DNA from: Vicinamibacterales bacterium
GTDB lineage: Bacteria > Acidobacteriota > Vicinamibacteria > Vicinamibacterales > JAMQPK01
Reading direction: 5' to 3'
Assembly: GCA_963746535.1 (NCBI GenBank)
Contig: CAVVBP010000007.1
Coordinates: forward strand, 880,444-944,443
Length of the DNA: 64,000 nt
The notes under the pieces are model-generated. The model was not told the origin of the DNA and ran no database searches. It saw only the letters and a list, made by a program, of their open reading frames with translations. Below are positions 27,497 through 37,087 of the stretch, in pieces (positions within the stretch are counted from its first letter, which is position 1; each line of letters opens with the position of its first letter). The translations under genes and the position numbers were made by a program.

Positions 27497-28851
27497 TCAC
27501 TCGAGCTGCTTGTGACAGTATTCGCAGTCGGCGCTGATGGTCGATCCGTCCTTGGCGGCGTGCGAGTCGTCGTGGCACCGGAAGCAGCCGTTTGACGTGA
27601 CGTGCCCCTTCTGGTCGGGATAAAAACCCCACGTGACGTTCATCGTCGGGAACACGTTGCGGCGATACACGTCCTGGAAGGCCCTGACCGCGCGCCTCAG
27701 CTCCTCGTCGCTCGAGCCGGCCTGCTTCTGATAGAACGCGCGCAGACCTTCATCGATCGCCTGGTCGGCCGCCTCCTGGCTGGGATAGGACGCCTTGACC
27801 AGCCGTACACCTTCGCGCCGCGCGAACGGAAGCGTGCGGCTCACCTGTCCGGCCGCGATGGCGTTGTCGACGGCTCTCTCGGGTGTCGCCGAGATCGGAT
27901 GGCCCACCGTGTTGTGACAGTCGATGCAATCCATCACCCGGCGCTCGCCCGCGCTGATCGTCTGCTCGGACGTATCAGGGGCGACGTATTCCTTCACGTT
28001 GCCCGCGGCGTCGGTGACTTTGACGTACGGAATGGTCTCGTGACGTGGGTCCGTTGCGACATACTCGATACGAACGGCAGGGCTTGCATGCCAGTGGATC
28101 GCGCGCGTCGAGGTCGTGGAGCCCGGGTTCACGTGCAGCTGCAGCACCGTGGCGGTCTCTGCGTTCGCTTCGTCGTCGGCATATTCGCGAATCACGCGCA
28201 GCCGATCGCCGGTCCGGCGACCCGGCTGGTGGCAGCCGGTGCAGGTCATCGCCTGTGCACCGGGACCCATCTGAGCCCCCGGTGGAACTGGCCGTGGATA
28301 GGTATTGGTTGCCACGTGCGCGAGCTGTCGCACGCCCGAGAGCTTGGCGTGAAGGAACCCCACGGCGCCCTCGCCAATATGACACTCGACGCAGGGGATT
28401 CGCGCGTGCGCCGACGCGCTGCCAGGCCGTGTGCTGCGCCTGCATCGGCGTGTGGCATACCTGTCCGCAGAAGGTCGGCGATTCCATCCAGTGCAGGCTG
28501 CCGTACCCCGCGAGAAGGATGATGACGACGTTGACGGCAGTGAGCGCGGTGATGACGAGCGCCGTCCGGCGAACGCTGGTGCGCCGGAAATCGAGAACGG
28601 GCCAGTCGATGACGGCTTCAGGGTGGCGCGCCAGCTCGCGTCGCCGGAGCCGCACACCCACCGGGATGAGGAGCAGTCCCAGCAGGAAAACCGTCGGGAG
28701 GCCGACGAAGACGACGAGACCTGCGTAGGGATTCGCGAGCATCCCCGCCAGCAGCGCGATCAGCAGCGCGATGAAGACCACGGCCGAGGCCGTGGTCACC
28801 AGCACGCCGACGATCGCAACTGGATGCGGAAAGCGCTTCTCGCCGCGTCAT
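27497..28851 (-). CDS. Membrane-anchored multiheme cytochrome c, NapC/NirT-like N-terminus, 6 heme motifs; 2 frameshifts
   Basis: Three hydrophobic segments; MESPTFCGQVCH, CVECH, CTGCH, CIDCH, CFRCH, CEYCH; joined from ORFs 27975..28805 and 27497..28657. Confidence 0.85.
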
Positions 28852-28860
28852 GACCGCCGC

Positions 28861-29227
28861 TTACTTGAGGCTCTGCATGTAGGCGACGAGCGCGTCGATG
28901 TCTGCCGCGGGCAGCGAGCCGTACTTGTTCGGCATCGGCGGCTTCTTCGTTGATTTCGCCTTCGCGGCCGCCTCGGTCGGGTGGGTGATCCACTCGCGTG
29001 ATCTCTGCCGCCGACAGTTTGGCGGCGACGCCGTCGAGCGGGTTCGCCTTGCTACCCTTGCCCGCGATGGCATGGCAGATCGAGCACTTCTGAGCGTTGT
29101 AGACCTCTTGTCCCTTTTTGGCGGCGGCGGCATCTTGAGCGGCGGCCGGCGGCGCCGCCGCCAGCCAGACCCCTAGGGTCAACGCCGCTGCAACAAGAAC
29201 GGGTGTCGTTGTAAGCCTGCTCAGCAT
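28861..29227 (-). CDS. Small periplasmic monoheme cytochrome c; 1 frameshift
   Basis: Signal peptide, GQEVYNAQKCSICH; C-terminal KPPMPNKYGSLPAADIDALVAYMQSLK in the adjacent frame. Confidence 0.85.
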
Positions 29228-33455: not shown

Positions 33456-36400
33456 TTCTCCTTCGTCGCGTCGGGATGCGCCGGTGCTGCGGCGTCGGCC
33501 GTGCCTCGAACACCGGCACCGTGATGCCCGCGAGCTGCTGGTAGACGGCGTACCGGCGCTCGGCCGCCGCCTGTGACTCCGCGACGAACGTCTTGTAGCG
33601 GGCCGGGATCGGCACGCTCGACCATCCGGAAGCGCGACTCGTTGCGCATGTAGTCGGCGACCTTCGCCTTCGGCGGACCGTAGTCGAGATGCAGCGGCGG
33701 CTCGCCCTTGGCGAATCCGCCGCGGATCGAAGCGGTAGAGCGGCCAGACGCCGGAGTCGACGGCCAGCTTCTGCTGCGACGCGCCGTTGCGCCATGTCGT
33801 AGCCGTGCGCGATGCAGTGGCTGTAGGCGATGATGAGCGACGGTCCGGGATACGACTCGGCTTCGAGAAACGCCTGCGCCGTCTGCGCCATCTTCGCGCC
33901 GAAGGCCACCCTCGCGACGTAGACGTGGCCGTACATGTTCGCGAGCAGACCGAGATCCTTCTTTCCGACCGGCTTGCCGGCGGCGGCGAACTTGGCGGCC
34001 GCGCCGAGCGGCGTCGCCTTCGACGCCTGGCCTCCGGTGTTCGAGTAGACCTCGGTGTCGATCACGAGGATGTTGACGTCGCGCCGGTTCGCCAGCACGT
34101 GATCGAGGCCGCCGTAGCCGATGTCGTACGCCCACCCGTCGCCGCCGACGAGCCAGACGCTCTTCTTCACGAGGTAGTCGGCGAGCGTTTCGAGCCGGCG
34201 CGCTTCGGCGGATCTGCACGCCGGCGAGCTGACTGCCGCAGCGCCGTCGACGCGCTCGCGCTGCGCCGCGATGCCGGCCTCGCTCGACTGATCCGCGTCG
34301 AGCAGCGCGGTCGCCAGGCCCGTCGCCGATCTGCGGCGCGAGCTGCTGGACGAGGCCGCGCGCGCCGCGCGACGTGCGCGTCGAGCGCCAGGCGGAAGCC
34401 GAAGCCGAACTCCGCGTTGTCCTCGAAGAGCGAGTTCGACCACGCCGGCCCTCGGCCGTCGCGATTCGTCGTGTACGGCGTGGTCGGCAGGTTGCCGCCG
34501 TAGATCGACGAGCAGCCGGTGGCGTTCGCGATGAGCAGCCGGTCGCCGAAGAGCTGCGTGAGCAGCTTGAGGTACGGCGTCTCGCCGCAGCCCGCGCAGG
34601 CGCCCGAGTACTCGAACAGCGGCTCGAGGAACTGCGAGCTCTTGTGATCGATCTTCGCCATCTCGGTCCGGTCCAGCTCGGGGAGATTGAGGAAGAAGTC
34701 GTAGTTGGCGCGCTCCGGCGTCGCGCAGCGGCGCCTGCGGGTGCATGTCGATCGCCTTGTGCTTCGGGTTGGTGCGATCCTTGGCCGGGCAGACGTTCAC
34801 GCACAGGTTGCAGCCCGTGCAGTCCTCCGGCGCCACCTGAATCGTGAAGTGCTTGCCCTTGTGCTCGTTGCCCTTGTACGGCGTCGACTTGAACGTCGGC
34901 GGCGCGCCCGCCAGCGCGCTCTCGTCGTAGACCTTCGCGCGAATCGCCGCGTGCGGGCAGACGAGCGCGCACTGGTTGCACTGGATGCAGATCTTCGAGT
35001 CCCAGACCGGAATCTCGAGCGCGATGTTCCGCTTCTCCCACTTCGCGGTCGCCACCGGCCACGTGCCGTCGACCGGAAACGCGCTCACCGGCAGCAGATC
35101 GCCCTTCCCGGCCAGCATCACGGCGGTGACCTTCTGCACGAAGTCGGGCGCCCGCTCGGACACGAGCGGCGGACGCGCGCGCCGCGCGCTGACCGCGGCC
35201 GGCACCGTGATCTCGTGCAGGTGCGCGAGCGCCTGATCGACGACCTCGCAGTTGCGGCGCACGACCTCCGGGCCGCGCTTGCCGTAGGTCTTCTCGATCG
35301 CCTTCTTGATGTGCTTGATCGCCTCGTCGCGCGGCAGCACGCCGGAGATCGCGAAGAAGCACGTCTGCATGATCGTGTTGATGCGCGTCCCCATGCCGGC
35401 GCGCTTGGCCAGCTCGTACGCATCGATCGCGAAGAAGCGGATCTTCTTCTCGATGATCTGCTCCTGCATCTCCCTCGGCAGGTGGTCCCACACCTCGTCG
35501 GCCGGGAACGGCGCGTTCAGCAGGAACGCCGCGCCCGGCGCCGCGTGTTCGAGCACGTCGATCTTGTCCACGAACTCGAACTGGTGGCAGGCGACGAAGC
35601 CGGCGCGTTCGACGAGGTACGCCGACCGGATCGGCCGCTTGCTCGTGCGCAGGTGCGAGATGGTGATCGCGCCCGACTTCTTCGAGTCGTAGACGAAGTA
35701 GCCCTGCGCGTACAGATCGGTTTCCTGGCCGATGATCTTGATCGAGTTCTTGTTGGCGCCGACGGTGCCGTCGGCGCCGAGGCCGTAGAACAGCGACGCC
35801 GACACGTCCGTCGGACTCGGTCCGGAACGACGGATCCCACGGGAGCGACGTGTGCGTCACGTCGTCGACGATGCCGACGGTGAAGTGACGCTTGGGCTTG
35901 TCCTTGCGCGAGCTTCGTCGAAGACCGCCTTCACCATCGCGGGCGTGAATTCCTTCGACGACAGGCCGTAGCGGCCGGCGATGACGCGCGGCGGCACCGC
36001 GAACGGCGAGACGCCCTCGGCGTGCGCTTCGGCGAGCGCCGTCGATGACGTCGAGATAGAGCGGATCGCCGGGCGCGCCCGGCTCCTTCGTCCGATCCAG
36101 CACGGCGAGGCTGCGGACGCGTCTTCGGCAGCGCGGCCAGGAACGCCGCGCTGCGCGAACGGACGATAGAGCCGCACCTTCAGCACGCCGACCTTTTCGC
36201 CGCGCGCCGACCAGGTAGTCGACGGTTTCGTGCGCCGTTTCGGCGCCCGATCCCATGATCACGATGACGCGCTCGGCGTCGGGATCGCCGACGTACTCGA
36301 ACAGGCCGTAGCGCCGGCCGGTCAGCTGCGGCGAACGACTGCATCGTGCGCTCGACGACGCCGGGACACGCGTCGTAGAAGCCGTTCGCGGCTTCGCGCG

Positions 36401-37087
36401 CCTGAAAGAACACGTCGGGGTTCTGCGCCGTGCCGCGCAGCACCGGCCGGTCGGGCGTCAGCCCGCGCCGGCGATGCGCGAAGACCAGACGATTCCGAGA
36501 TCAGCGCGCGCAGGTCGTCGTCGCTGAGCTCTTCGATTTTCGCGACCTCGTGCGACGTGCGGAACCCGTCGAAGAAGTGCAGGAACGGAATGCGCGTCTC
36601 GAGCGTCGCCGCGTGCGCGACGGCCGCCATGTCGTGCGCTTCCTGCACGGAGTTCGAGCACAGCAGCGCGAAGCCGGTCTGGCGGCAGGCCATGACGTCG
36701 GAGTGGTCGCCGAAGATCGACAAGGCGTGCGTGGCGAGCGTGCGCGCCGCCACGTGCATCGTGAACGGCGTCAGCTCCCCGGCGATCTTGTACATGTTGG
36801 GGATCATCAGCAGCAGGCCCTGCGACGCCGTGAACGTCGTCGAGAGCGCGCCGGCCTGCAGCGCGCCGTGGACCGCGCCGGCCGCGCCGCCTTCCGACTG
36901 CATTTCGGCCACCTCCGGGATGGCGCCCCAGAGGTTCGGGCCGCTTGCGGCTCGACCACTCGTCGCAGACCTCGGCCATCGGGCTGCTGGGCGTGATCGG
37001 GTAGATGGCGATCGCCTCGCTCGCCCGATACGCGACCGACGCAGCCGCCTCGTTTCCGTCTACCGTGATCCGCCGCCTGCTTGCCAT
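33452..37087 (-). CDS. nifJ: Homodimeric pyruvate:ferredoxin (flavodoxin) oxidoreductase; many frameshifts
   Basis: [39 protein letters not shown], ferredoxin motifs [12 protein letters not shown] and [47 protein letters not shown]. Confidence 0.93.

Follow-up and report, generated by a model that had tools for sequence, protein, structure and literature searches.

Does a soil bacterium keep the genes for anaerobic cleavage of pyruvate in one array with those for moving electrons across its outer membrane? The question is raised by six minus-strand genes in a 64-kb stretch of DNA (the window), which covers 880,444 to 944,443 of contig CAVVBP010000007.1 in assembly GCA_963746535.1, a metagenome-assembled genome (MAG) of a soil bacterium of the Vicinamibacterales (Acidobacteriota). 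The six genes lie at 27497-37087 and are, from 5' to 3', those for a pyruvate:ferredoxin oxidoreductase (PFOR), a flavoprotein resembling dihydroorotate dehydrogenase (DHODH-like), an MtrA-family decaheme cytochrome, an MtrB-family outer-membrane barrel, a monoheme cytochrome c (cyt c) and a hexaheme NapC/NirT-like cytochrome. Few bacteria are commoner in soil than Vicinamibacterales, which are regarded as aerobes, and how they respond to water-logging is poorly understood.

On balance we favour the reading that the window holds a genuine cluster, in which a PFOR and DHODH-like cassette stands directly before a four-gene conduit of the Mto-like kind, and which would serve conversion of pyruvate to acetate under anoxia with disposal of the electrons to the outside, the frameshifts that interrupt the genes being mostly consensus errors.

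The cluster and the identity of its genes

Gene borders were set from the ends of the open reading frames (ORFs) and from tblastn matches with intact orthologues. They bear out the gene order given in an original prediction, made from the letters of this DNA, and reproduce exactly its spacers of -4, 22, 12, 25 and 9 bp along the minus strand from PFOR to the hexaheme gene. The 22-bp spacer between the DHODH-like and MtrA genes has a GAGGA ribosome site as its sole content, and terminator-like matches (7, against 7.3 expected in shuffled sequence) are absent from all of the cluster's spacers, in keeping with the prediction that no terminator was to be seen. We infer that a single operon for all six genes is favoured by the short spacers and the lack of terminators above chance. 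The 64-kb window has no ORF with four or more CxxCH heme sites besides the cluster's own, and the predicted absence of an MtrC-like surface cytochrome holds over this length.

We use G000 for the window's own genome (a 6.1-Mb assembly with contigs C2, C7, C14 etc.), other G numbers such as G004, G014 and G015 for related genomes, and L numbers for related loci, which bear the names of Vicinamibacterales and Acidobacteriota soil MAGs. None of the six cluster genes is an intact ORF in the window: the phase of G+C at third codon positions (GC3) jumps repeatedly, and matches to protein families are piecewise only. The cluster thus stands as predicted in its order and identities but not as a set of readable genes, all six being frameshifted. 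All are intact in the many-contig assembly G015, and for each gene we give the match of the G015 orthologue with that of the window fragments (see also Table 1).

With regard to the cassette, the PFOR fragments, read across frames, sum to 1084 bits against TIGR02176, and the G015 orthologue is a full-length single-chain match at 1766.6 bits (cut-off 911). The PFOR gene of the window is the only single-chain one in G000. The DHODH-like gene has two fragments matching NF005741 (133.6 and 89.1 bits), and its orthologue matches at full length with 375.6 bits (cut-off 303), a match that does not imply activity on dihydroorotate.

The MtrA orthologue scores 254.8 bits against TIGR03508 (cut-off 192.2) and has 10 CxxCH sites and a signal peptide, seen as an N-terminal hydrophobic segment. 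MtrB follows directly downstream of the decaheme gene, 12 bp away in the window. Its orthologues reach 233-241 bits against TIGR03509, which is borderline against the cut-off of 240.05 (the G015 copy has 236), and the G015 copy has 271 bits against PF11854. The DmsE/MtrA and MtrB/PioB matches that the prediction had proposed as a check on its identities are therefore found, that of MtrB to TIGR03509 being borderline. For the cyt c gene there are tblastn matches in two frames, and the orthologue has one CxxCH.

The hexaheme orthologue has three N-terminal hydrophobic segments and six heme sites, the first a CX3CH and the other five CxxCH. Its PF03264 match (28.8 bits) is confined to positions 8-100 of a profile of 174, its TIGR03153 score of 54 bits is under the cut-off of 134, and a search of solved structures found no relative. 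On these predicted features it is a distant, enlarged relative of NapC/NirT, and not a protein with one helix, four CxxCH sites and a match to the full profile.

Table 1. Features of the cluster and of the DNA on either side of it, in window coordinates
Feature	Position	Strand	Remarks
PFOR, NifJ/YdbK type	33452-37087	-	~30 frameshifts; tblastn pieces span residues 1-1193 of the G015 protein
DHODH-like FMN flavoprotein, PRK07565 type	32469-33455	-	start overlaps PFOR stop by 4 bp; internal frameshifts
DmsE/MtrA-family decaheme periplasmic cytochrome	31469-32446	-	frameshifted; fragments match TIGR03508 at 91 and 90 bits
MtrB/PioB-family outer-membrane beta-barrel	29253-31456	-	frameshifted; three fragments match TIGR03509 and PF11854
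Monoheme class I cytochrome c	28861-29227	-	signal peptide; MtoD-like position; one frameshift near 29000; PF00034 match
NapC/NirT-like inner-membrane hexaheme cytochrome	27497-28851	-	frameshifts at ~28421 and 28827; 3' part 27497-28420 clean
Dense block of single-base insertions	28421-36945		probable poor consensus; largely coincides with segment of differing ancestry
SpoIIAA-like/STAS protein	37170-37550	-	PF11964, 62 bits; 82 bp upstream of PFOR, same strand
GlgX glycogen debranching enzyme	20966-23137	+	
Glycogen phosphorylase	24408-27083	+	
PPK2 polyphosphate kinase	38404-39768	-	

Conservation in related genomes

Our survey covers 80 related Vicinamibacterales loci, with neighbourhoods taken as within 8 kb. 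MtrA-MtrB-cyt c-hexaheme is a near-universal four-gene module across them. The PFOR-DHODH-like pair is directly upstream of MtrA on the same strand in 15 of the 80 loci, and in 2 it comes immediately after the hexaheme gene. In G015 two different contigs each carry PFOR with MtrB, one for each order. The complete six-gene order is found in G004, G014, G015, G016, G021 and G022, and the DHODH-like/MtrA junction recurs in six congeners. The synteny, on which the original prediction had staked its case, is indeed kept in at least seven congeneric species.

Other genes of pyruvate and acetate metabolism are also found at this position. Some loci have pyruvate formate-lyase (PFL) and its activase (PflA) directly upstream of MtrA, and two have PFL-PflA-PFOR-DHODH-like-MtrA, the order of L049, where the gaps are 23, -4, ~36 and 15 bp. 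The longest same-strand arrays have ten genes and begin with SdaA (serine dehydratase), a major facilitator superfamily (MFS) gene, Pta and AckA; this is followed by PFOR-DHODH-like-MtrA-MtrB-cyt c-hexaheme in L047 and by PFL-PflA-MtrA-MtrB-cyt c-hexaheme in L077, with variants in L051, L106, L061, L062, L072, L069 and L090. Many of the array contigs have MEGAHIT-style names (k141), apparently from short-read assemblies, and their ORFs are intact. Altogether, at least one of PFOR, PFL, Pta and AckA is present within 8 kb in 25 of the 80 loci. An MtrC-like multiheme protein was not seen in the 8-kb flanks of the annotated orthologues.

We considered a 14-nt motif, GTGATnCCnACCAA, which lies ~100-137 bp upstream of both PFOR and PFL, as a shared FNR/CRP-type site, and rejected it, as it encodes the conserved C-terminal end of acetate kinase (VIPTNEELMIARHTG). 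The conserved sequence upstream of PFOR and PFL is thus the 3' end of the acetate kinase gene, and longer Pta-AckA arrays were revealed in this way.

Over 41 relatives PFOR and MtrB co-occur beyond expectation (15/5/8/13, Fisher p=0.028, uncorrected for phylogeny), and in three other families of the order the two genes are 6-18 kb apart. Gene order thus speaks for anaerobic pyruvate-to-acetate metabolism being genetically linked to electron export. The original prediction had tied pyruvate oxidation to the conduit, and on the genetic side the tie is reinforced by the arrays in which Pta, AckA, PFL/PflA and serine dehydratase are present as well.

Proposed function

If the six genes work together, then under anoxia pyruvate would be converted to acetyl-CoA and on to acetate, with ATP made at substrate level. 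The reducing equivalents would pass outward from quinol to the hexaheme cytochrome, to cyt c and to MtrA inside MtrB, and from MtrA/MtrB to extracellular Fe(III), humics or another acceptor. As judged from gene context the conduit would be an outward electron sink co-regulated with the pyruvate-to-acetate pathway, and the DHODH-like protein is a candidate only for carrying the ferredoxin electrons of PFOR to the membrane.

We also suggest, more tentatively, that Vicinamibacterales carry a dedicated anoxia unit, which would take serine or pyruvate through acetyl-CoA to acetate and ATP and have its own outer-membrane electron outlet. They could then survive loss of oxygen by fermentation with an external sink in Fe(III) or humics, the MtrC-less Mto-like conduit working in the reducing direction by way of a new six-heme quinol dehydrogenase. 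If this is true, substrate-level ATP from pyruvate is hard-wired to an electron outlet, and there are widespread and overlooked Fe(III)/humic reducers in soil. It would also mean that absence of MtrC does not mark a conduit as of the oxidiser type, and gene-based tools for annotation of the iron cycle may rely on a rule of that kind. The cassette, at a compact 8-10 genes, is suited to testing in a heterologous host.

Association of the cassette with the conduit

Several observations weigh against our preferred reading, those given here bearing on the union of cassette and conduit and a further set, given below, on the frameshifts. About 55 of the 80 Mtr modules have no PFOR, PFL, Pta or AckA within 8 kb, the adjacency of PFOR is patchy on the MtrB tree, where at least seven changes are needed, and in G000 itself MFS-Pta-AckA are on contig C14 and PFL is absent. 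Expression, on the other side, is indicated by soil metatranscriptome contigs, which match the MtrB, MtrA, DHODH-like and PFOR genes of G014 at 95-99%. One of these contigs covers the junction of MtrA and MtrB, but at a coverage that is too low no transcript was seen across the DHODH-like/MtrA junction.

The PFOR-DHODH-like segment also differs in ancestry from the DNA around it. It is closest to G004 (93-95%) and has only 88-90% identity to G014, whereas the flanks have 97-98% identity to G014, and the ancestry breakpoints are near the borders of the cassette (window 32500-37000). The pattern would be expected either from recombinational exchange of the cassette or from a strain-level chimera in the assembly, and a plausible technical explanation is that assembly of the block went along a strain variant of low coverage. 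We considered whether the excess of window-unique substitutions in 32.5-37.0 kb could be noise from a mixed consensus and rejected this, the counts by codon position and the comparison with G004 indicating mainly a divergent, selected allele.

The alternative that best survives is that PFOR-DHODH-like and the Mtr module are independent units, remnants of an ancestral anaerobic gene block, with no co-transcription and no electron path between them. We regard this as improbable. The patchy adjacency and the separate recombination history, with breakpoints near gene borders, are what it would lead one to expect. Moreover PFOR-DHODH-like is also found in relatives without MtrB and is for that reason to be seen as a separate cassette. 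The module for its part is alone or beside other genes in most loci, 13 of them having a molybdopterin oxidoreductase with an Fe-S/NrfD partner, mostly divergent from the module, and any idea of PFOR as an obligatory partner of the conduit has to be given up.

However, there are at least four architectures in which a gene for pyruvate cleavage shares the strand of the module and lies within 19-51 bp of it: upstream PFOR, downstream PFOR, upstream PFL, and upstream PFL together with PFOR. The ribosome site that alone occupies the 22-bp spacer and the proximity of PFOR and MtrB in three other families also argue against independence, and the patchy adjacency itself fits an ancestral array that would have been broken up repeatedly.

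Frameshifts: consensus error or decay

The second doubt concerns the broken state of the genes. We consider it likely that the frameshifts are local consensus errors of a long-read metagenome assembly and not gene decay. The block has ~45-60 single-base insertions, at sites that are not homopolymers. Alignment with the congener G014 opens 92 gaps between 27446 and 38396, compared with 7 over a flank of 4 kb and 6 over one of 2 kb. The majority of the 92 reflect one extra base in the window, and insertions are about four times as frequent as deletions. The first insertion is inside the hexaheme gene, of which the 3' 920 bp are clean. The extra bases at 29999, 30125, 31121, 31771, 31907 and 31931 are missing from Illumina contigs of unrelated soil metagenomes.

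The cluster is not alone in this. In a phase-tracking scan of the 6.1-Mb assembly its 9-kb block was joint third among ~690 blocks, with others equally affected. The block at C7:495000, compared with G014, has 36 single-base insertions and 7 deletions within 3 kb, and another, at C11:810000, is over complex I antiporter-like genes beside the gene for ATP synthase subunit a. Because there are similar blocks elsewhere, because the edge of this one is within a gene and because congeners have the genes intact, local consensus error is the better explanation. It gains further from the related few-contig MAGs, which we take to be long-read assemblies and each of which has its own frameshifts in this operon, while G015 has all six genes intact.

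As a side observation, G000 has a dozen or more such dense-insertion blocks (for example C7:495000-504000, C10:945000, C9:36000, C11:810000-828000 and C12:513000-531000), and gene calls inside them will resemble pseudogenes.

The alternative is that the frameshifts are real mutations, by which this lineage is losing the cluster or at any rate its PFOR. We think this unlikely, although all six genes are broken and an intact second MtrAB locus is present on C2. A point for it is that 3-6 of the single-base insertions in PFOR are common to the independent long-read MAG G004, those at 33608, 33790 and 36206 exactly so, where ~0.1-0.3 would be expected by chance, and that G004 is rich in frameshifts here too. 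The shared insertions could be either systematic errors or real frameshifts, and it is because of them that we still allow decay some probability. The differing ancestry of the PFOR-DHODH-like segment likewise keeps this reading in view.

Real decay is in turn hard to reconcile with several of the observations above. Insertions outside homopolymers that outnumber deletions are unlike bacterial mutation spectra, identical blocks are found elsewhere, including the one over complex I genes, the block stops within the hexaheme gene, and decay would mean loss of the only PFOR of the genome. Second-position changes in PFOR also allow at most ~4 random substitutions per indel. The PFOR substitutions show a strong third-position bias, on the window branch as well as in the comparison of the window with G004, and this points to purifying selection. 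However, this argument is weakened because the ancestry of the segment is mosaic, and a dN/dS-type test of error against decay is, with this confounding, not decisive.

Public reads are of little help on this point. The best runs hold 0.12-0.22 of the words for operon and flank alike, so that the source sample is not indexed, and contigs of at least 96% likeness gave only conserved PFOR pieces of 50-70 nt, which are uninformative on the insertions. We suggest that the locus in the window be treated as a low-quality stretch of a long-read MAG, and that it be neither scored as a set of pseudogenes nor read gene by gene.

The possible role of the flavoprotein and the direction of electron flow

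A more specific proposal is that the DHODH-like flavoprotein is the specific link by which the ferredoxin that PFOR reduces passes its electrons on, either to the quinone pool or to the hexaheme cytochrome. In its favour, the 4-bp overlap pairs the gene with PFOR in nearly all loci, whether or not the Mtr module is present. In Propionibacterium PFOR is flanked by DHODH-like and GltD-like genes, with a similar ferredoxin-quinone connection postulated for the DHODH-like protein (PMC7650540), and the pairing of the two genes, which the prediction had called common, is thus already in the literature. The cassette here has the same pairing but has no GltD/NfnB-like gene and is joined to an outer-membrane conduit. 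However, on sequence inspection the protein has neither a hydrophobic segment nor an Fe-S motif, it is only distantly related to solved DHODHs (E ~1e-6), and PFL-bearing arrays that have no DHODH-like gene keep the conduit. We consider so specific a role quite improbable.

The reverse reading, in which the conduit is of the Fe(II)-oxidising Mto/Pio type for electron uptake and PFOR runs backwards as a pyruvate synthase, was offered as an option in the original prediction and would suit the absence of MtrC and a gene set like MtoA, MtoB, MtoD and CymA of Sideroxydans, a layout reviewed in PMC5566968 and PMC10654088. It is very improbable, because in relatives the genes nearby serve catabolism (Pta, AckA, PFL and its activase, serine dehydratase), with no carbon-fixation genes among those annotated, and reduction of ferredoxin by Fe(II) is steeply uphill in energetic terms.

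Comparison with known systems

The conduit, which in our preferred reading works outward, is closest in composition to the MtoD-MtoA-MtoB-CymA system of Sideroxydans lithotrophicus ES-1 and PioAB of Rhodopseudomonas. Like these it has an MtrA-family decaheme cytochrome and an MtrB/PioB porin beside a monoheme class I cytochrome c and a NapC/NirT-type cytochrome, and like these it has no MtrC. The order differs, being MtrA-MtrB-cyt c-NapC-like in the window, and the membrane cytochrome has six heme sites, the first a CX3CH, and three hydrophobic segments, where the CymA type in Sideroxydans has four hemes and one helix. The host here is an acidobacterial heterotroph, with pyruvate-to-acetate neighbours and electron flow that is probably outward.

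In its inferred physiology the cluster is nearer to CymA-MtrCAB with PflB and Pta-AckA in Shewanella oneidensis, where acetate and substrate-level ATP are formed and the electrons leave by a NapC-family quinol dehydrogenase and MtrAB. In Shewanella the metabolic and mtr genes are at separate loci and MtrC/OmcA are required, whereas here metabolic and conduit genes are in one same-strand array with no MtrC encoded nearby.

Within the Acidobacteriota, Baker et al. 2022 described Group 5 MtrCAB in Acidobacteriia, with a tetraheme partner, in a paper that does not mention pyruvate (PMC8805035). Group 5 is likewise a porin-cytochrome conduit with a group-specific periplasmic cytochrome beside mtrB, but it differs from the cluster in the window in having MtrC and the tetraheme partner, and in its class. 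PioA/MtoA homologues have also been noted in Acidobacteria (PMC10654088), and as ecological context only, a Vicinamibacterales MAG was disproportionately active during snowmelt (PMC12872456). In the literature searched on Vicinamibacter with MtrA, MtoA, MtrB, decaheme or porin-cytochrome conduits we found no paper describing this cluster, and the linkage of pyruvate-to-acetate genes with an Mto-like conduit is apparently undescribed.

Neighbouring genes and other cytochrome loci

The SpoIIAA-like/STAS gene upstream of PFOR could be the first gene of the unit or a regulatory partner, and it is kept in this position in G014, G016 and G021. The GlgX and glycogen phosphorylase genes converge on the 3' end of the cluster and the PPK2 gene is on its other side, so that genes for mobilisation of storage polymers adjoin those for anaerobic pyruvate metabolism and electron export.

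The second, unbroken locus in G000 has MtrA (10 CxxCH, C2:126107-127132) and MtrB (C2:127276-129345), and L033 covers C2 118000-136000. Within 30 kb of it there are a DHODH-like paralogue (C2:106953-107915), a cytochrome c (C2:101663-101923) and a 9-heme ORF (C2:98857-101178). Contig C14 has very large multiheme ORFs at 474751-479343, with 24 and 13 CxxCH sites in adjacent or overlapping frames, where a frameshift may have divided a single giant cytochrome.

In L035 (2178-7525) and 12 other loci the molybdopterin oxidoreductase beside the Mtr module is in two pieces, of 217 and 815 aa, and the 4Fe-4S/NrfD membrane subunit is fused. The split may be due to a selenocysteine codon or to a frameshift.

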